Of a DNA stretch of 64,000 bases, positions 1-63,690 are shown piece by piece. Both the position numbers and the translations under genes were made by a program. The stretch comes from Escherichia coli. GTDB lineage: Bacteria > Pseudomonadota > Gammaproteobacteria > Enterobacterales > Enterobacteriaceae. The notes below the pieces were generated by a model, which was not told the origin of the DNA, searched no databases, and worked only from the letters and a program-made list of their open reading frames with translations. Where the stretch lies: assembly GCF_048403405.1 (NCBI RefSeq), contig NZ_CP183129.1; one strand, written 5' to 3'. Numbering within the stretch: position 1 is the stretch's first letter; every line of letters begins with the position of its first letter.

Positions 1-296
1 TTCACTGTATTGATGGCGGGTATGCGACGGAGTTATCCGCAGAGTTTGATACTCCGTGGGGGCCGCCGTCAGCAGCGGTTTTGTGTGCTCTGTCTGCGCG
101 TTTCCGCTGTCAGGTCCGTCATGTCTATGCCGAAGAAGGCTGTGGTTTCTGCGGATACAGCGAGTATGACCATGGCCGGTTAACCGACCATGAATCTGAT
201 GAGATTGAGTTCAGTGATGAAGAGAATGAGGACGGTTTCCAGGATGTGACGGGACCGGACTATATTCTTGATTCATTGCCACATTACGGAGGGTGA
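1..296 (+). CDS. 3' part of a hypothetical protein with a highly acidic C-terminus; the frame is open from the window edge (5'-truncated by the window)
   Basis: Frame 3 has no stop from nt 3 to TGA at 294-296; the six-frame track only reports it from an internal TTG at 81. No family recognised. Confidence 0.35.
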   Translation, partial: HCIDGGYATELSAEFDTPWGPPSAAVLCALSARFRCQVRHVYAEEGCGFCGYSEYDHGRLTDHESDEIEFSDEENEDGFQDVTGPDYILDSLPHYGG

Positions 297-326
297 GGTT
301 TCCGTACTGATTTAACTGACTGAAAA

Positions 327-357
327 CCCGGTAGTGATACCGGGTTTTTTTATTTTT
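327..357 (+). terminator. Rho-independent terminator (hairpin cccggta-gtga-taccggg followed by a T run)
   Basis: Perfect 7-bp stem with 4-nt loop, then TTTTTTTATTTTTTT; lies just downstream of the stop at 296. Confidence 0.7.
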
Positions 358-439
358 TTCGGAAAACTAATTTCGGCTTTTGTTTTATTCCCGCATTGTT
401 ATCGTGATGCCGTCATTGAATGAGATGGGGGAGAGTGTG

Positions 440-766
440 ATGAGATGTGAATTTGGGCAGGGTGTGAGGGAGTGGGCTCAGGATTTTTGGAATGAAATTC
501 TGTTTCCTTTTTTTGTCACAGCCGGACTTTTGTTGCCACTGATTCTGGTTGTGGGCGTTTTCCTGGTCTGGGATGAACAGCGCCAGGCTGAGTGGGGGCG
601 TTATTACCTGACGGAATGTCAGTTGGTGGAAAGAAACAGAAATGCGGGCTTCTGGTCAGGTCGGGAAAATATTCTGCAATGCGGAATGACCCGGGAGCAT
701 GTGAATGCGGACGCGTATGAAAAGGCCATCCGTGCCTGGCAGCAGAAACAGACAGAGACAGAATAA
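440..766 (+). CDS. Small hypothetical protein with one predicted transmembrane helix
   Basis: ORF 380-766; the ATG at 440 is preceded by GGGGGAGAG (Shine-Dalgarno-like). Hydrophobic stretch ILFPFFVTAGLLLPLILVVGVFLVW. Start choice is uncertain. Confidence 0.4.
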   Translation: MRCEFGQGVREWAQDFWNEILFPFFVTAGLLLPLILVVGVFLVWDEQRQAEWGRYYLTECQLVERNRNAGFWSGRENILQCGMTREHVNADAYEKAIRAWQQKQTETE

Positions 767-941
767 TAAAACATTATTCATGTAATCTTCTGTTTTGTTG
801 CCGGAATTATTTTTGTGGATGAGTTAACGTAATGAAAATAAGGTGCATTTATTATTTATTCTTATCCTGATATTAAAATAATTTATGTTTTATTTAATGT
901 TGCGTTGTTGTTTTTACCGAATTAAAGAGGCAGTAACACCG

Positions 942-2534
942 ATGTTACCGTGGTTTCGTAAATCGCTTTCCCGGAAAGCGGAAGAGAAAACATTGCGTGT
1001 TTCCCCGGGAAACACGCAGGAAAGGCCATTATTTATCCGTGACAGTGACGGCTTTTATTTACCGCAGGCAGCTGACGTATTGCTGACCACACCGCAGCGG
1101 CAAAACTGGTTACAGCAAATCAGCCGGGTGGTAGCGTTACCGGATAACCAGTACCGGGCACTTTGCCTGTCTCCTTTGCAGACGCTGGCAGAACGACTTC
1201 AGTGTGTGCCGGCATCAAAAACCGGGAAATATGCCGGCGAAGGGGGATTGCTGGATTTAACGCTGAATACGACAGCCTGGTGTATGCGGATGTCCCAGAA
1301 AGAGATGCTGCCCCGCGGGCTTCCGTCGGAAGAGCAGAGCCGTCAGTTCAGCGCCTGGAATGTGTGTGTTTTTTATACCGGACTGTTTTACTGGTTACCG
1401 TTAACGGCACAGTTTGAGGGACAACTGAACAGCCTGTCGGCGTGGCAGCCGGGGATGAGTGCGCCCACCGTACCGTATCGTTTTCGCTTTCATGAGCCGG
1501 TGCCGGATATGACGCATTTTCGCCGGACGACGGGGGCCATGATGGCTTTCCGGCTATTACCGGAGAAGGTAATCCACTGGTTGTCGGGTACACCAAAGGC
1601 GCTTCAGGCGTTGTCTGACGTGGTGACCGAGCCGGTAAACGGTGATAATGATTTACAGCGTGTGCTGAATGAGGCTCTGGCTGCGTTCCCCGCCGGTGCA
1701 TTGCCGGCATTTTCTTCCGTTGTTTCTATGTCAGCGCCTGATGCTTCGTCTTCAGTGCTATCAGGGCAGCCGGAGAATGATATCGCGTCATTGGCGCCTG
1801 CTGAATTGGCGCAAAAGCCACAACCTGAAACTCCGTCTGTAACATCTGTATTGCCTCCGGAGTCTGTTACTTCAGAAAAAACAGAGAACGGAATTCACTG
1901 CGATATACCGCTAATGGTAGTTGCAGAAGCAGAAGGTGCGGTTGTCCATGGGGCACTTGATTCTGCTGATGAAAAAACTGTCTCAGATATGTCTCCTCCG
2001 TTATCTGAGGATATGAAATATGCACTTGAATTATCAGGTTTAATGCCGGAAATCTTATCTGATACTCAGACGGGCAATCGTGATGAGAAGGATGAACAGC
2101 GCGAAAACTGTCTGAGTATAAAAAATGAAGGAGAGGCTTTCTGGGCGTGGTTTAAGTCCGGATTATTGGGCGGAAAACTGGCAATAAATACGCCGGATGC
2201 GAAGGTTCACTGTGTCATGGAGTATTTGTTTTGCCAGAGTCCGGCTGTTTTTTATCAGTACATACAGGAGGCGGGTAAAAATCCGGATGATATCGGCCAT
2301 ATTATTTCTTCTTTTGAATCCCTTAAATTGCACCGGATTATTCGTCATGATACCCGACAAACAGGGCATTTCAGGGCTCGAATTTATGGTGAAAAACTGA
2401 ATCCGCTGAGTGATAACAAAACATTAATTACGTTATCCCATAAAAAAATCAATGGTTACATGATTAAAGGACGTCAGATTTTTGGCATGAATATGCCGGA
2501 GGAATCATTGTTTATTCGTATTGTCGGAAGTTAA
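942..2534 (+). CDS. Hypothetical ~530-aa protein: N-terminal domain, Ser/Pro/acidic linker, Cys/His-rich C-terminal domain; function unknown
   Basis: Long ORF (track 885-2534); the ATG at 942 has AAAGAGG upstream. Ends 15 nt before the recombinase start, suggesting co-transcription. Confidence 0.6.
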   Translation: MLPWFRKSLSRKAEEKTLRVSPGNTQERPLFIRDSDGFYLPQAADVLLTTPQRQNWLQQISRVVALPDNQYRALCLSPLQTLAERLQCVPASKTGKYAGEGGLLDLTLNTTAWCMRMSQKEMLPRGLPSEEQSRQFSAWNVCVFYTGLFYWLPLTAQFEGQLNSLSAWQPGMSAPTVPYRFRFHEPVPDMTHFRRTTGAMMAFRLLPEKVIHWLSGTPKALQALSDVVTEPVNGDNDLQRVLNEALAAFPAGALPAFSSVVSMSAPDASSSVLSGQPENDIASLAPAELAQKPQPETPSVTSVLPPESVTSEKTENGIHCDIPLMVVAEAEGAVVHGALDSADEKTVSDMSPPLSEDMKYALELSGLMPEILSDTQTGNRDEKDEQRENCLSIKNEGEAFWAWFKSGLLGGKLAINTPDAKVHCVMEYLFCQSPAVFYQYIQEAGKNPDDIGHIISSFESLKLHRIIRHDTRQTGHFRARIYGEKLNPLSDNKTLITLSHKKINGYMIKGRQIFGMNMPEESLFIRIVGS

Positions 2535-2549
2535 AAGCAGGAGGTGTTT

Positions 2550-3620
2550 ATGAAAGATAATCACAGTTCTGATGAACATCAGCAGAAAGTGGATGTATGG
2601 GAGCAAATGCTGAGTAATTACTTTTACAATAAAGTATTACGGCCGGATACGGAGAAAACATACCGTAAGATGGTACGTCTTTTTCTGCGTTATTGCGGAG
2701 TTTGTGAAAATGCGTTACCGCTACCGGATGAAGTGACACATGAGCATGTGCTGAGATGGCGAAGAAATGAGCTGAATATTCAGAAAGTCCGGGAACGGAC
2801 ATGGAACACAAAAACCAGGCATATGCAGTCTCTGTATAATTATTGGATCAAAAAAGGGATTGTTTCACTTAAAGAAAACCCGTTCTCAGAAACACAAATT
2901 GAACCGGGTGAAAAACAGAAAAAAGTCTATACACAATCACAACTGAGAACGATTTATCGTATTCTGGAACAATTTCAGCAACAGGAAAATATGCTGCCAC
3001 CTGATCAGGCTCACTTTCAGGCATGTGCGGTTTATCCCACTCGATTCTGGTTTGCTGTGCTGGAAACGCTGAGGCTGACGGCTATTCGTTTTAACCAGCT
3101 GATTAACCTGCATATTGGCGATCTGGATTTTGAGGAGTGTACGATCACATTGCGCAGTGAAAGCAGTAAAAATCACCGGGAATATCAGATTGCTTTTGTT
3201 CAGCCACTACGTTGTTTACTGGCGCCCTTGGTTGAGGAAATGCGTTGTCACGGGGCGGATAAAAACGATATTTTGTTTGATGTTCATCGTCTTTATCATA
3301 AACGACTATCCCGCTCTGAAACTCCACTCAGTCAGACGATACGTTCTTTTTTCCGTCGTTTATCAAAGGAATGTGGATTTCATGTCAGTCCCCATCGTTT
3401 CAGACATACACTGGCGACGACATTAATGAAACATCCTGAACGTAATATGCAATTGACGAAACAGATGTTAGGACACCGTAGTCTCTCTTCAACTATGGAA
3501 TATATTGCTCTGGATGCATACAGTACAGTCAGGATCTTGGAGAATGAGTTAGGTGAGTTTTTAACAATGGGATTAGGTGGTGAACTTACAAGGCTAGCAT
3601 CAAAAAGACAGAGGATGTGA
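2550..3620 (+). CDS. Tyrosine site-specific recombinase (phage-integrase family, XerC/D/Cre-sized, 356 aa)
   Basis: C-terminal catalytic signature HRFRHTLATTL ... LGHRSLSSTMEYI (H-x-x-R and H...Y nucleophile), upstream Arg-containing box (ETLRLTAIRF). AGGAGG lies 5 nt before the ATG at 2550. Adjacent to the tRNA-Phe 3' end. Confidence 0.85.
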   Translation: MKDNHSSDEHQQKVDVWEQMLSNYFYNKVLRPDTEKTYRKMVRLFLRYCGVCENALPLPDEVTHEHVLRWRRNELNIQKVRERTWNTKTRHMQSLYNYWIKKGIVSLKENPFSETQIEPGEKQKKVYTQSQLRTIYRILEQFQQQENMLPPDQAHFQACAVYPTRFWFAVLETLRLTAIRFNQLINLHIGDLDFEECTITLRSESSKNHREYQIAFVQPLRCLLAPLVEEMRCHGADKNDILFDVHRLYHKRLSRSETPLSQTIRSFFRRLSKECGFHVSPHRFRHTLATTLMKHPERNMQLTKQMLGHRSLSSTMEYIALDAYSTVRILENELGEFLTMGLGGELTRLASKRQRM

Positions 3621-3637
3621 TATAAATAAAAAATATT

Positions 3638-3671
3638 TACACAAAGTTGACTATTTTATCAACTTTGTGTA
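3638..3671. repeat. Perfect 13-bp inverted repeat with 8-bp asymmetric spacer (TACACAAAGTTGA-ctatttta-TCAACTTTGTGTA)
   Basis: Read directly; begins 18 nt after the recombinase stop. No T tract follows. Confidence 0.8.
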
Positions 3672-3690
3672 TAAGCTGGATTTGATTGAG

Positions 3691-3715
3691 AAGGGTGTTC
3701 TAGGAAAACACCCTT
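3691..3715. repeat. 9-bp inverted repeat hairpin (AAGGGTGTT-ctaggaa-AACACCCTT)
   Basis: Read directly; lies between the recombinase gene and the tRNA. Confidence 0.6.
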
Positions 3716-3853
3716 ACTTGATAAATCATTGTCAACCACGTGAGAAGTCATGAACGTGATTACAACTGAAATTCAAGTTTTAACCGAGCGTTGGAGATCT
3801 CACTTCCAGCGACCGTGCTAGGGAAACGGTTACACCATTTCCGAAAGGAAAGA

Positions 3854-3929
3854 TGGTGCCCGGACTCGGAATCGAACCAAGGACACGGGGATTTTCAATC
3901 CCCTGCTCTACCGACTGAGCTATCCGGGC
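3854..3929 (-). tRNA. pheV: tRNA-Phe (GAA)
   Basis: Reverse complement matches the E. coli tRNA-Phe sequence over 76 nt including the CCA end; located next to yqgA as pheV is in K-12. Confidence 0.95.
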
Positions 3930-4034
3930 AACGGGGCGCATTAAACCTGATTCGCCTCGTCTCGTCAATCAAATTTCTTCAATTTAGTGCAGACTGCACA
4001 ATCTATCATCACTTTGCCGCTATTGCACGCATTG

Positions 4035-4742
4035 TCAGGCAAACCAGGCGGTCCAGGCGGCGGAAAGCGGCATTGCCAGAAGGAGTGCTGGAAGCATGTT
4101 GACCACCGGGAACATTTTAATGCCACAGATGCGTAATCCGGTTGCCAGCAGCAATAAACCGCCTACGGCGCTGAAGTCTGCCATCATCGACGGTGTGGTC
4201 AGCGGTAATATCAGCGCGGCAGCCCACGCCAGCGTTAACTGGATGATCAGTAATGGAATGCTAATCACCGACACCGCAATACCCAGCGAGCAGGCGAAGA
4301 TCATCGCCGTAAAGAAATCAAGAAATGACTTGGCGATTAAAATACTTGGATCGCCGGTCATCCCTTCGTTCATCGCCCCGAAGATTCCGGTGCCGCTGGC
4401 GCAAAACAGGACAATAATCGCGACAAAATTCTGAATAAAAGATTCATGCGCTGGCTTCTTACGCGAGTGGTGAAACAGATTATGCGCTTTGGCGACCACT
4501 GTATTGACGCCTTTTTCCAGCAGACAAATTTCGCCGATTAATGCTCCGAGTAAGGTTGCTAAAACCATCGCCGGAAGGTTGGCGCATTTCACCACCAGTA
4601 AAATACCAATCCCCAGCGATGCCAGACCAAAAATTGATGTCATGGAGACGCGGATACGTTCCGGTAAGCGTTGGCTAAGGAGTGCGCCGAAAACGCCACC
4701 CAGTAAGACTGCACTTGCGTTGATAAAAGGGCCGATGACCAC
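4035..4742 (-). CDS. yqgA: Inner-membrane protein YqgA (DUF554)
   Basis: 235-aa polytopic membrane ORF recognised as YqgA; conserved position between pheV and speC. Confidence 0.85.
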
Positions 4743-5140: not shown

Positions 5141-7276
5141 ATGAAATCAATGAATATTGCCGCCAGTAGTGAACTGGTATCCCGACTTTCTACTCATCGC
5201 CGCGTGGTGGCGTTGGGAGATACTGATTTTACGGACGTCGCGGCAGTCGTCATTACCGTTGCGGATAGTCGCAGTGGCATTCTTGCGTTGCTTAAGCGCA
5301 CCGGTTTTCATCTACCGGTGTTTTTGTATTCCGAACATGCTGTTGAATTACCTGCGGGCGTTACGGCGGTAATCAACGGCAACGAGCAGCAGTGGCTGGA
5401 GCTGGAATCCGCAGCCTGTCAGTATGAAGAGAATTTGCTGCCACCGTTTTATGACACGCTGACGCAGTACGTTGAGATGGGTAATAGCACCTTTGCTTGC
5501 CCTGGACATCAACATGGTGCGTTCTTTAAAAAGCATCCTGCCGGACGCCATTTTTACGATTTCTTTGGCGAGAACATCTTTCGCGCCGATATGTGTAACG
5601 CTGACGTAAAATTGGGCGATCTGCTTATTCATGAAGGATCGGCGAAAGATGCGCAGAAATTTGCAGCCAAAGTCTTTCATGCCGATAAAACCTATTTTGT
5701 GCTGAACGGCACATCGGCAGCGAATAAAGTGGTGACGAATGCGCTGTTAACGCGTGGCGATCTGGTGCTCTTCGACCGTAACAACCATAAGTCGAATCAT
5801 CACGGCGCGTTGATTCAGGCGGGGGCGACGCCGGTTTATCTGGAAGCTTCACGTAACCCGTTTGGTTTCATTGGCGGTATTGATGCGCACTGTTTTAATG
5901 AAGAGTATCTGCGCCAGCAAATTCGCGACGTTGCGCCAGAAAAAGCCGACCTGCCGCGCCCGTTTCGCCTGGCGATTATTCAGCTGGGAACCTATGACGG
6001 CACTGTCTATAACGCCCGTCAGGTGATCGATACCGTTGGGCATCTGTGTGATTACATTCTGTTTGATTCCGCGTGGGTCGGTTACGAACAGTTTAACCCG
6101 ATGATGGCGGATATCTCGCCGCTGCTGTTAGAACTTAACGAAAACGATCCGGGGATCTTTGTGACCCAGTCGGTGCACAAACAGCAGGCGGGATTCTCAC
6201 AGACGTCGCAGATCCATAAAAAAGATAACCATATCCGTGGACAGGCGCGTTTTTGCCCGCATAAGCGGTTGAATAATGCCTTTATGCTCCATGCTTCTAC
6301 CAGCCCGTTCTATCCGCTGTTCGCCGCCCTGGACGTTAACGCCAAAATTCATGAAGGGGAGAGTGGGCGTCGGCTGTGGGCTGAGTGCGTTGAGTTGGGT
6401 ATTGAGTCGCGCAAGGCTATTCTTGCGCGCTGTAAGCTGTTCCGCCCGTTTATCCCGCCCGTTGTTGATGGCAAATTGTGGCAGGATTATCCGACGTCAG
6501 TGTTAGCCAGCGACCGCCGTTTTTTCAGTTTTGAGCCGGGGGCGAAGTGGCACGGCTTTGAAGGATATGCCGCGGATCAGTATTTTGTTGATCCGTGCAA
6601 GCTGTTACTCACCACGCCGGGTATCGATGCCGAAACCGGCGAATATAGCGATTTTGGCGTTCCAGCGACGATTCTGGCGCACTATCTGCGTGAGAACGGC
6701 ATTGTGCCGGAGAAGTGCGATCTCAATTCCATTCTGTTCTTATTAACGCCGGCGGAAAGCCACGAGAAGCTGGCGCAACTGGTGGCGATGCTGGCGCAGT
6801 TTGAACAGCATATTGAGGATGACTCGCCGCTGGCTGAGGTGTTGCCGAGCGTTTATAACAAATATCCGGTGCGCTATCGCGACTACACCCTGCGCCAGTT
6901 GTGTCAGGAGATGCACGATCTGTATGTCAGTTTCGACGTCAAAGACCTACAAAAAGCGATGTTCCGCCAGCAGAGTTTCCCGTCAGTGGTGATGAACCCC
7001 CAGGACGCGCATAGCGCTTATATTCGCGGTGAAGTGGAGTTGGTGCGGATTCGTGATGCCGAAGGGCGAATTGCGGCAGAAGGGGCGTTGCCTTATCCAC
7101 CAGGCGTGCTTTGCGTGGTGCCCGGGGAAGTCTGGGGTGGGGCGGTTCAACGTTATTTCCTTGCGCTGGAAGAAGGGGTGAATTTGTTGCCGGGATTTTC
7201 GCCGGAGCTGCAAGGTGTCTATAGCGAAACCGATGCAGATGGCATGAAACGATTGTACGGTTATGTGTTGAAGTAA
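5141..7276 (+). CDS. speC: Ornithine decarboxylase, constitutive isozyme
   Basis: 711-aa ORF recognised as SpeC; ATG start. Confidence 0.95.
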   Translation: MKSMNIAASSELVSRLSTHRRVVALGDTDFTDVAAVVITVADSRSGILALLKRTGFHLPVFLYSEHAVELPAGVTAVINGNEQQWLELESAACQYEENLLPPFYDTLTQYVEMGNSTFACPGHQHGAFFKKHPAGRHFYDFFGENIFRADMCNADVKLGDLLIHEGSAKDAQKFAAKVFHADKTYFVLNGTSAANKVVTNALLTRGDLVLFDRNNHKSNHHGALIQAGATPVYLEASRNPFGFIGGIDAHCFNEEYLRQQIRDVAPEKADLPRPFRLAIIQLGTYDGTVYNARQVIDTVGHLCDYILFDSAWVGYEQFNPMMADISPLLLELNENDPGIFVTQSVHKQQAGFSQTSQIHKKDNHIRGQARFCPHKRLNNAFMLHASTSPFYPLFAALDVNAKIHEGESGRRLWAECVELGIESRKAILARCKLFRPFIPPVVDGKLWQDYPTSVLASDRRFFSFEPGAKWHGFEGYAADQYFVDPCKLLLTTPGIDAETGEYSDFGVPATILAHYLRENGIVPEKCDLNSILFLLTPAESHEKLAQLVAMLAQFEQHIEDDSPLAEVLPSVYNKYPVRYRDYTLRQLCQEMHDLYVSFDVKDLQKAMFRQQSFPSVVMNPQDAHSAYIRGEVELVRIRDAEGRIAAEGALPYPPGVLCVVPGEVWGGAVQRYFLALEEGVNLLPGFSPELQGVYSETDADGMKRLYGYVLK

Positions 7277-62614: not shown

Positions 62615-62760
62615 ATGGCAGGACAGCATGGGGCTGTAACGGTAAAGCCCTCACCGAAGCGAGGGCTTAAAGGAGAAGGGTTATGATGCGACTTGTCATC
62701 ATACTGATTGTACTGTTACTCATAAGTTTGCCAGCTTATTAACAGTCAGTCACAGGGGAG
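62615..62760 (-). ncRNA. sibC: SibC (RygC) antisense sRNA, antitoxin to ibsC; boundaries approximate
   Basis: Inferred from the ibsC position (Sib RNAs are transcribed antisense across the whole ibs ORF); ends not determined. Confidence 0.45.
62683..62742 (+). CDS. ibsC: Type I toxin IbsC (19-aa hydrophobic peptide MMRLVIILIVLLLISLPAY)
   Basis: Strong Shine-Dalgarno (AAGGAGAAGGG) before the ATG; peptide closely resembles Ibs toxins; position between fau and serA matches the K-12 sibC/ibsC locus. Confidence 0.75.
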   Translation: MMRLVIILIVLLLISLPAY

Positions 62761-62842
62761 GAGTAATCCTCCCTTACCCTTACTCACTAAATTAGGTTAA
62801 AGAATCAACGATGTCAATCAGGGCGATGCAGGTGTGTCGCCC

Positions 62843-63462: not shown

Positions 63463-63648
63463 AAGGGAATCTCCGAGATGCCGCCGCAGGCTGTAACCCT
63501 TGAACCCTTGGTTCAAGGTGAATGTGTCGTCGCAGTTTTAAGGCTTCTCGGACGGACCGAGCATGCTCACCAACCGCGGAGCGCCACATTCTTGTGGTAT
63601 GAAATATCGGCTCAGGGGACTGGCCCGCTTGCGAACATCTCAGAGAAA
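63463..63648 (-). ncRNA. ssrS: 6S RNA
   Basis: Reverse complement reads ATTTCTCTGAGATGTTCGCAAGCGGGCCAGTCCCCTGAGCC…CGGAGATTCCCT, the E. coli 6S RNA; immediately upstream of fau as in K-12. Ends approximate to a few nt. Confidence 0.93.
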
Positions 63649-63690
63649 TTTTGTCTTCACGGTTACTCTACCACAGTAAACCGAAAAGTG

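Follow-up and report, generated by a model that had tools for sequence, protein, structure and literature searches.

The first 3,853 nucleotides of the window, the 64,000-nucleotide stretch of Escherichia coli DNA analyzed here, are very probably the attR-proximal integration and DNA-processing end of a ∼92.5-kb ICEPm1, an element of the PFGI-1/pKLC102/SPI-7 type, inserted at pheV. The element is real and already described, and the window adds no new biology to it. ICEPm1 is reported to be self-transmissible and was first described in Proteus mirabilis HI4320 (Flannery 2009, 2011). Its size is given as 92.6 kb (PMC11278526), and the extent from integrase to partitioning gene in Klebsiella is 92,220 bp (PMC5820359). 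As cited in PMC11278526 and PMC6736028, Flannery 2011 reports that it targets both pheV and pheU and that its transfer needs the integrase, the relaxase, and the T4SS. Escherichia copies that are >99% identical to ICEPm1 have been reported (PMC11278526). At pheV, ICEPm1 brings a siderophore cluster and an adhesin to E. coli, and the identical relatives of the copy described here are human isolates.

Window positions 1 to 3950 are 99.85% identical to P. mirabilis ATCC 29906 and 99.87% identical to Providencia stuartii NCTC11800, the two strains used for the comparison in place of HI4320 itself, and tRNA-Phe is adjacent in each. This is the near-identity to a Proteus, Providencia, or Morganella element expected of ICEPm1. 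The window holds 3.85 kb of the element, and the remainder is deduced from identical genomes. In E. coli GN02323, which is 100% identical, the element spans 92.5 kb (NZ_CP095514.1, 4050638-4143127). Upstream it carries conjugation genes of the TIGR03745-03759 families, TraD, TraG, a conjugative ATPase, and PilL, and its other genes include taaP, an nrp-type NRPS/PKS siderophore cluster, topoisomerase III, SPI-7-type DnaB, ParB, and ParA. The ∼92.6-kb size with the expected modules and nrp/taaP cargo is thus observed in GN02323 and probably holds for the genome of the window.

The sequence-only reading had proposed an unknown three-gene operon, on the understanding that its recombinase was not a known, characterized integrase. 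That proposal falls, as its recombinase is ICEPm1's own integrase, TraI belongs to a curated family, and the DNA is 99.85 to 99.87% identical to the published element in its ATCC 29906 and NCTC11800 copies. The features of this end are as follows.

1..296, plus strand: 3' part of a DUF1281-domain ICE gene, cut by the window start (RefSeq annotation of GN02323).
322..349, plus strand: terminator-like hairpin and T-run, a 12-bp stem followed by TTATTTTTTT, invariant between ICEPm1 and ICEPm2 types.
440..766, plus strand: 108-aa protein predicted to cross the membrane once, by a helix at residues ∼25-43 (indel pattern; hydropathy).
767..941, plus strand: AT-rich intergenic region 5' of traI (ICEPm1/ICEPm2-type alignment; imperfect inverted repeats).
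942..2534, plus strand: traI, 530-aa MOBH-family relaxase (TIGR03760; Pfam TraI_2 and TraI_2_C; PDB 2IPQ).
2550..3620, plus strand: int, 356-aa Xer-like (simple) tyrosine recombinase, the ICE integrase (Pfam; XerA/XerD alignment).
3638..3671, no strand: perfect 13-bp inverted repeat (TACACAAAGTTGA n8 TCAACTTTGTGTA) just 3' of the int stop codon (repeat search).
3691..3715, no strand: 9-bp hairpin (AAGGGTGTT n7 AACACCCTT), with invariant stems and only the loop differing between ICEPm1 and ICEPm2.
3731..3759, plus strand: two 13-nt direct repeats (GTCAACCACGTGA, GTCATGAACGTGA), invariant between ICEPm1 and ICEPm2 types.
3854..3904, no strand: 51-bp att core, the pheV 3' end, with a second copy at the element's other end (GN02323 comparison).
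3854..3929, minus strand: pheV, tRNA-Phe(GAA), the intact integration target (ARAGORN and Rfam; yqgA and speC flanks).

Both ARAGORN and Rfam place tRNA-Phe (GAA) at 3854-3929 on the minus strand. Its neighbors, yqgA (4035-4742, minus strand) and then speC (5141-7276, plus strand), identify the gene as pheV, on whose 3' side the island is located. The earlier view of an island end anchored at tRNA-Phe and continuing past the window start was correct; it had proposed seeking the distal junction as a repeat of the pheV 3' end. A second att copy (51/52) lies outside the window, at 4143076-4143127 of NZ_CP095514.1, 92.5 kb away and directly after ParA, while shuffled sequences gave 0 matches. The published ICEPm1 repeat is 52 bp, with 51 bp inside the tRNA (PMC11278526), and insertion at a tRNA-Phe 3' end between ∼52-bp direct repeats is what GN02323 displays.

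ORF calling confirmed three plus-strand ORFs in the same direction at 440-766, 942-2534, and 2550-3620, and the last ends 233 nt from the tRNA, close to the ∼230 bp first given. Their description as tightly spaced applies to traI and int, which are separated by 15 nt, but not to the small ORF, which lies 175 nt from traI. The hairpin and T-run at 322-349 stand between this set and the upstream DUF1281 gene, whose coding sequence in GN02323 corresponds to window positions -705..296 in the RefSeq annotation. The intergenic region at 767..941 contains several imperfect inverted repeats, is almost invariant between ICEPm1 and ICEPm2 types from ∼790 on, and may be a promoter/regulatory or oriT region. 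A promoter consensus scan found no match in this region or 5' of the genes, and fewer sites than in shuffled sequences. Because the scan gave none upstream of the genes, operon structure is judged from spacing, which suggests that traI and int are cotranscribed.

When the DNA is aligned with the ICEPm2-type copy of E. coli M19 (93% identical), the start codons originally chosen prove to be the conserved ones. Two indels, one of 1 nt on the 5' side of 440 and one of 2 nt in the interval 885 to 942, interrupt the longer ORF extensions and so rule out RefSeq-style ORFs that start at 885 (TraI) and at 380 or 533 (small protein). TraI is 530 aa long in other RefSeq records, and AGGAGG lies 5 nt 5' of the int ATG at 2550. 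The strong family matches of the two large ORFs show that these are not chance ORFs. Annotation pipelines are inconsistent in the start codons of this module, and their labels for the key genes are generic (“TraI domain-containing protein,” “tyrosine-type recombinase/integrase,” and “hypothetical protein”).

The integrase matches Pfam Phage_integrase (5e-20) and Phage_int_SAM_4, and its closest solved relatives are XerA and XerD. Alignment to these two proteins revealed a complete R-K-H-R-H-Y catalytic set (R180, K207, H282, R285, H309, and Y318). Its scores are below the equivalog cutoffs for XerC (65.3 versus 335) and XerD (56.7 versus 330), and by sequence it is classed as Xer-like and not as a chromosome-dimer resolvase. 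The initial observation that it is not a ∼420-aa P4-type enzyme was also borne out. At 356 aa, with only SAM-like N-domain matches besides Phage_integrase, it has neither the ∼420-aa length nor the N-terminal DUF4102-type arm-binding domain of that type. From the element family, it probably belongs to the IntKX subgroup of simple tyrosine recombinases, which is reported to cluster with the integrases of PAPI-1, ICEEc2, and ICESb2 (Roche 2010; PMC8138268). The exact sequence occurs in at least 1,000 Enterobacterales contigs. No excision factor was identified within the window.

Several elements of the int-to-tRNA spacer are conserved. The 13-bp inverted repeat at 3638..3671 differs from its ICEPm2-type counterpart at a single loop base, and as a probe against one genome per species it matched only P. 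mirabilis and P. stuartii. It may serve as a terminator or be bound by a protein within the attP arm. The direct repeats at 3731..3759 are candidate arm-type binding sites, although two such short copies may have arisen by chance.

The small protein and the 530-aa protein were both said to match nothing, which holds for the former and fails for the latter. The 108-aa protein had no match in Pfam, NCBIfam, PHROGs, or PADLOC, so no function is assigned to it, and it is the only uncharacterized gene of the three. Its frame and ATG at 440 are backed by the indel pattern, and its Kyte-Doolittle maximum (2.77, 19-residue window) lies at FVTAGLLLPLILVVGVFLV. The exact sequence is present in at least 1,000 Enterobacterales contigs, and 107/108 residues are identical in a mosaic variant at pheV. 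It is a conserved companion gene of the ICE. A defense system was rejected as an identity for the locus (0/3 proteins matched in PADLOC), as was a prophage (the only PHROGs match was to the integrase).

The 530-aa protein is the TraI relaxase. It scored 184.4 bits against TIGR03760 (ICE_TraI_Pfluor; curated cutoff, 161.4) and matched Pfam TraI_2 (1e-22) and TraI_2_C (6e-15), and it is identical at 548/549 positions to a protein labeled as Proteus mirabilis and “MULTISPECIES Enterobacterales.” A look-up of the genomic surroundings of a Xenorhabdus TraI homologue returned nothing. It has the MOBH architecture of an N-terminal TraI_2 domain (PF07514, residues 56-264), a Ser/Glu/Ala/Pro-rich linker, and a C-terminal TraI_2_C domain (PF07515, residues 415-503; numbering of the 549-aa form). 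The C-domain matched PDB 2IPQ (STY4665 of SPI-7) at 3e-11. Against the MobH equivalog NF041494, TraI scored 91.8 bits, below the cutoff of 200. The metal-binding 3H (HHH) and HD phosphohydrolase motifs of MOBH1 and MOBH2 are absent from TraI. In 40 of 112 representatives the positions concerned read HHH, H, and HD, whereas TraI has G95-K96-Y97, L106, and Y150-W151. The motif residues are missing from TraI and its ∼55 nearest representatives, while ∼40 more distant ones keep them. Deep search and alignment confirmed the loss, which was discarded as a novelty because it is the known state of MOBH3 (PMC6736028), and the motif-less sequence fits the description of that clade given there. TraI of the gonococcal genetic island (GGI), the MOBH2 prototype and the sole MOBH relaxase studied biochemically, likewise has TraI_2, a disordered linker, TraI_2_C, and a short basic N terminus, but it has alternative 3H and HD motifs, which are essential for its Mn/Co-dependent cleavage (PMC6736028).

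Could a MOBH3 TraI without these motifs be something other than the nicking enzyme, such as a relaxosome or coupling adaptor, with another protein cutting oriT? The loss of H95-97, H106, and H150-D151 throughout the nearest representatives agrees with this, as does the statement that neither motif is present in MOBH3, “suggesting an alternative function” (PMC6736028), given that HD and 3H are essential for cleavage by GGI TraI. We nonetheless think it unlikely, since the P. mirabilis ICE is listed among those whose transfer needs their MOBH relaxase (PMC6736028), TIGR03760 is curated as an ICE relaxase, and TraI is the sole relaxase family gene annotated in the GN02323 copy. Furthermore, conservation of the N-domain is very strong and extends to Y179-R-F-R and W139, as would be expected for an active site. 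How MOBH3 relaxases act without the HD and 3H motifs is a general question rather than one specific to this window. We suggest only speculatively, and with low probability, that ICEPm1 TraI processes DNA by a non-HD/3H route or jointly with the integrase, perhaps with the 108-aa protein as a third component of the module. If so, ICEPm1, which is genetically tractable for transfer, would be a test bed for MOBH3 protein action.

With TraI taken as the relaxase, family membership and published genetics suggest how the element would move. The Xer-like 356-aa integrase would recombine the 51-bp pheV 3'-end repeats with each other, giving an excised circle and a restored attB. TraI would process the circle at a putative oriT, and TraD and the ICE-type (TIGR0374x-0375x) T4SS, encoded deeper in the element, would deliver the DNA to a recipient. 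There the integrase would insert the circle at the pheV or pheU 3' end, with the element supplying a replacement tRNA 3' end. Excision and transfer may be active in this strain.

Alternatively, the locus could be an ICEPm1-derived island that is now fixed, having lost excision and transfer in this E. coli lineage. We regard this as quite unlikely. The GN02323 cargo is partly pseudogenes or IS disrupted (a second ArdC, a DUF2857 fragment, and IS remnants), and the element is in tandem with another island. However, int, traI, traD, traG, the ATPase gene, and all TIGR0374x-5x genes are annotated as intact, and the att repeat is perfect (51/51). The module of small ORF, traI, and int was found in 23 of 5,426 complete E. 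coli genomes, at pheV or pheU, and the occupation of both sites in different E. coli, together with the 99.85% identity across three genera, argues for recent, repeated transfer.

It is very improbable that the element is another pKLC102/PAGI-2 member, such as ICEEc2, rather than ICEPm1. ICEEc2 does insert 3' of E. coli phe tRNA genes by means of a Xer-like IntKX integrase (PMC11537424, PMC8138268), and a mosaic relative whose integrase is 54% identical is likewise found at pheV. The ICEEc2/pKLC102-PAGI-2/PAPI-1/SPI-7 family also shares a Xer-like, probably IntKX-type integrase at a tRNA, a TraI_2 relaxase, a TIGR0374x-5x (GI-type) T4SS, SPI-7-type DnaB, and ParA/ParB with the element. However, cargo and sequence differ (ICEEc2 and PAPI-1 were compared by description only), the DNA is 99.85% identical to Proteus/Providencia copies, and the nrp siderophore, taaP, and 92.5-kb size fit ICEPm1. 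The reading as a new operon of three genes, terminating a pheV island not described before, is hardly tenable. Although no library gave a family match for the small ORF, the other two genes belong to curated families and the DNA is essentially that of the published element (PMC11278526).

Compared with ICEPm1 of HI4320, the element shares the ∼52-bp tRNA-Phe repeat, the ∼92.5-kb size, integrase and ParA at opposite ends, a MOBH relaxase adjoining the integrase, the ICE-type T4SS, the nrp siderophore, and taaP. It differs in its host, E. coli, and the GN02323 copy forms a tandem with a classical hly/pap island that has a P4-type integrase. ICEPm2 and ICEPm3 share the backbone and the small ORF-traI-int-tRNA layout but carry phenazine and CDI operons as cargo (PMC11278526). 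Their small ORF has a 9-nt indel, in frame and interior in the M19 copy, and a longer C terminus. ICEPm2 is 93.1% identical to window positions 1-4100 and is found at pheV in mouse E. coli strains M6, M9, M11, M15, and M19. In a mosaic variant at pheV, the TraI_2_C domain is exchanged along with the integrase, a covariation that adjacency alone explains unless many independent recombinants are examined. P4-type pheV/pheU islands (UPEC PAIs and the LEE) use the same tRNA target and tRNA side, but their ∼420-aa integrase is transcribed away from the tRNA, whereas the 356-aa Xer-like integrase here is transcribed toward it. Both integrase types occur in GN02323, where a 421-aa P4-type integrase and the hly/pap island lie beyond the ICE, displaced 92.5 kb by it.

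The genes yqgA and speC beside the tRNA-Phe, which was the only tRNA that ARAGORN called in the window, place it in the pheV neighborhood. This agrees with the sequence-only reading, which had anchored an island to the 3' side of pheV. Left of the tRNA lie three ORFs, all on the plus strand, with gaps of 175 nt between the small ORF and traI and 15 nt between traI and int.

Features at the pheV end of the element
322-349, hairpin and T-run closing the upstream DUF1281 gene
440-766, plus, small ORF, 108 aa, frame from indels relative to E. coli M19
942-2534, plus, traI, 530 aa, frame from indels relative to M19
2550-3620, plus, int, 356 aa, AGGAGG 5 nt upstream
3638-3671, perfect 13-bp palindrome in the int-pheV spacer
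3691-3715, 9-bp hairpin, varying only in its loop between the ICEPm1 and ICEPm2 types
3731-3759, two 13-nt direct repeats in the int-pheV spacer
3854-3929, minus, tRNA-Phe(GAA), pheV (ARAGORN; Rfam agrees)
4035-4742, minus, yqgA, right of the tRNA
5141-7276, plus, speC, right of the tRNA

Start codons were checked by alignment with E. coli M19, whose copy of the region is 93% identical. The alignment shows an indel of 1 nt upstream of position 440, another of 2 nt in the interval 885-942, and a third, of 9 nt and in frame, inside the small ORF; the conserved frames therefore give a 108-aa protein from 440 and a 530-aa protein from 942. TraI is also 530 aa in further RefSeq records. Together with the AGGAGG before 2550, these results uphold the ORF coordinates first read from the sequence. 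RefSeq starts conflict on identical or near-identical DNA (window 380-766 and 885-2534): TraI is 549 aa in E. coli GN02323 and 530 aa in M19 and HM670, and the small protein is 77, 108, or 134 aa, the 77-aa version having a TTG start at 533 that truncates its transmembrane helix. The indels between variants support 530 aa for TraI and 108 aa for the small protein.

The 530-aa protein scored 184.4 bits (cutoff, 161.4) on NCBIfam TIGR03760, “integrating conjugative element relaxase, PFGI-1 class.” It consists of a Pfam TraI_2 domain, a Ser/Pro/Glu-rich linker, and a TraI_2_C domain that matches PDB 2IPQ, STY4665 of Salmonella Typhi, and it is identical at 548/549 positions to a protein labeled P. 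mirabilis and “MULTISPECIES Enterobacterales.” The 356-aa protein has a Phage_integrase catalytic domain with residues R180, K207, H282, R285, H309, and Y318 present, and a SAM-like N-domain. Xer recombinases are its nearest relatives, with scores far under their equivalog cutoffs. This length, architecture, and Xer-like affinity bear out the earlier view that the recombinase is not P4-type, unlike those of P4-type pheV islands. The 108-aa protein has a single strongly hydrophobic helix and matched no family in the four libraries searched, and PADLOC gave no match for any of the three proteins. The claim that the two other proteins match nothing recognizable thus holds for the 108-aa protein and fails for the relaxase. 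Identical copies of the integrase and of the small protein are present on at least 1000 contigs, which come from Proteus, Klebsiella, Salmonella, and E. coli.

The TraI N-domain (window 942-1751) reads PASKTGKYAGEGGLLDLTLN and VFYTGLFYWLPL at positions where histidines are expected, with G95-K96-Y97, L106, and Y150-W151 in place of HHH, H, and HD. A deep search with this domain yielded 441 representatives at E ≤ 0.001, 112 of which were aligned. The query lacks the signature, as do 63 others, the ∼55 nearest among them; 40 more distant representatives keep PASE.HHH...GGMLDH.LE and ALLHDIG. Both TraI types conserve Q87, P90, G101-G102, D105, W139, and Y179-R-F-R. A MOBH3 clade without the alternative 3H and HD motifs, including 2IPQ and 3KQ5, has been described (PMC6736028). 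TraI therefore shows a known MOBH3 state, and we rejected the motif loss as a new oddity. How a MOBH3-type protein processes oriT is a general question, not one particular to this window.

The pheV flank was compared by megablast of window 1-4100 against 5426 complete E. coli genomes. At least 80% coverage was found in 23, with a 100% match in GN02323 (NZ_CP095514.1). Farther upstream, the island of that genome holds DUF1281, CbtA, and ArdC genes and carries a full ICE-type conjugation set (TIGR03745-03759 families, TraD, TraG, conjugative ATPase, and PilL), the trimeric autotransporter gene taaP, an NRPS/PKS siderophore cluster with TonB receptors, and genes for topoisomerase III, SPI-7-type DnaB, ParB, and ParA. 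Between the T4SS genes and the ArdC/CbtA block sits a second gene for an “integrase domain-containing protein” of 302 aa (L001, a GN02323 region, 12882-13790), followed by an SGNH hydrolase gene. The att repeat is the pheV 3' end (TGGTGCCCGGACTCGGAATCGAACCAAGGACACGGGGATTTTCAATCCCCT). A search for a distal copy, as the sequence-only reading had proposed, found a 51/52 match directly after ParA, 92.5 kb from the tRNA, and shuffled sequence gave no match. In GN02323 the island thus extends past the window start, as supposed, to a second att copy. The bases beside each copy are in the arrangement that a crossover within the 51-bp core would give attL and attR.

GN02323 also holds a classical pheV island in tandem with the ICE (L003, another of its regions, 19077-20591 onward; NZ_CP095514.1 4143076-4168000). 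The distal att copy is directly followed by a gene for a P4-sized integrase of 421 aa, after which come hlyCABD and pap genes, giving the order pheV / ICEPm1 / pheV' / hly/pap PAI. The older hly/pap island is displaced by the ICE and left with only a partial tRNA copy.

ICEPm1 of P. mirabilis HI4320 is 92.6 kb, has 52-bp repeats that overlap tRNA-Phe by 51 bp, prefers pheV but can use pheU, and comprises integration, conjugation, and replication modules (PMC11278526). The GN02323 element agrees with it in size, att repeats, target, and modules, and also agrees with a Klebsiella element of 92,220 bp from integrase to partitioning gene (PMC5820359). As a direct test, the palindrome after int was scanned against one genome per species. 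It matched only Proteus mirabilis ATCC 29906 and Providencia stuartii NCTC11800, in which window 1-3950 is 99.85% and 99.87% identical, respectively, beside tRNA-Phe in both. We identify the element as ICEPm1, with a sequence of the ICEPm1 type and not of the ICEPm2 type; it is a member of the PFGI-1/pKLC102/SPI-7 group of ICEs. The proposal of an unknown operon in an undescribed island did not survive: this is a published island at pheV with its known integrase and curated family matches.

Comparison of the ICEPm1 and ICEPm2 types gives 97% conservation for the 233-nt int-tRNA spacer (3621-3853), a higher value than for the adjacent end of the int coding sequence. The palindrome, hairpin, and direct repeats of this spacer are candidate arm or regulatory sites.

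The 93%-identical matches were mouse E. coli M6, M9, M11, M15, and M19, reported as ICEPm2 carriers (PMC11278526). The tRNA-Phe beside the ICEPm2-type element in M19 (L004 5370-5445) has A in place of G at one position of the 3' acceptor strand (TGGTGCCCGAAC), which would convert an acceptor-stem G-C pair into G-U; this altered 3' end was presumably supplied by the ICE. In 16 of the 23 E. coli genomes the match continues across the flank of pheV that holds yqgA, and in 7 it ends 48 nt beyond the tRNA. One of these, HM670 (NZ_CP082772.1 631461-635437), has a 99.8%-identical ICEPm1-type end at pheU, bordered by dicD, dsbD, and cutA, which suggests from this one examined flank that the 7 are pheU insertions.

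A mosaic relative lies at pheV in E. coli GCA_000779995.1 (L007 3499-7180). Its small ORF is identical at 107/108 positions and its TraI N-domain nearly so, but the TraI C-domain is of a different type and the 349-aa integrase is only 54% identical; most of the ∼45 nt adjoining the tRNA is conserved. Because the breakpoint is in the linker of TraI, the exchange took TraI_2_C and Int together as one block. The collection lists this mosaic TraI in 131 blocks.

The protein families and published genetics suggest the following cycle: the Xer-like integrase would recombine the two att cores into an excised circle, TraI, acting with TraD and the ICE-type T4SS, would transfer the circle, and the integrase would reinsert the element into the 3' end of either pheV or pheU. 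ICEPm1 transfer reportedly needs the integrase, the relaxase, and the T4SS (Flannery 2011, as cited in PMC11278526), and P. mirabilis is among the hosts of ICEs whose MOBH relaxase is essential (PMC6736028). The identity, architecture, and att repeats of the element are observed directly; intact genes and near-identity across genera suggest that it may be active in the strain of origin.

Otherwise the window consists of ordinary core chromosome (speC, nupG, mltC, mutY, and onward). Two RNAs lie near its far end.

62667-62817, minus, Sib antitoxin RNA (138 bits)
63466-63649, minus, 6S RNA, ssrS (140 bits)
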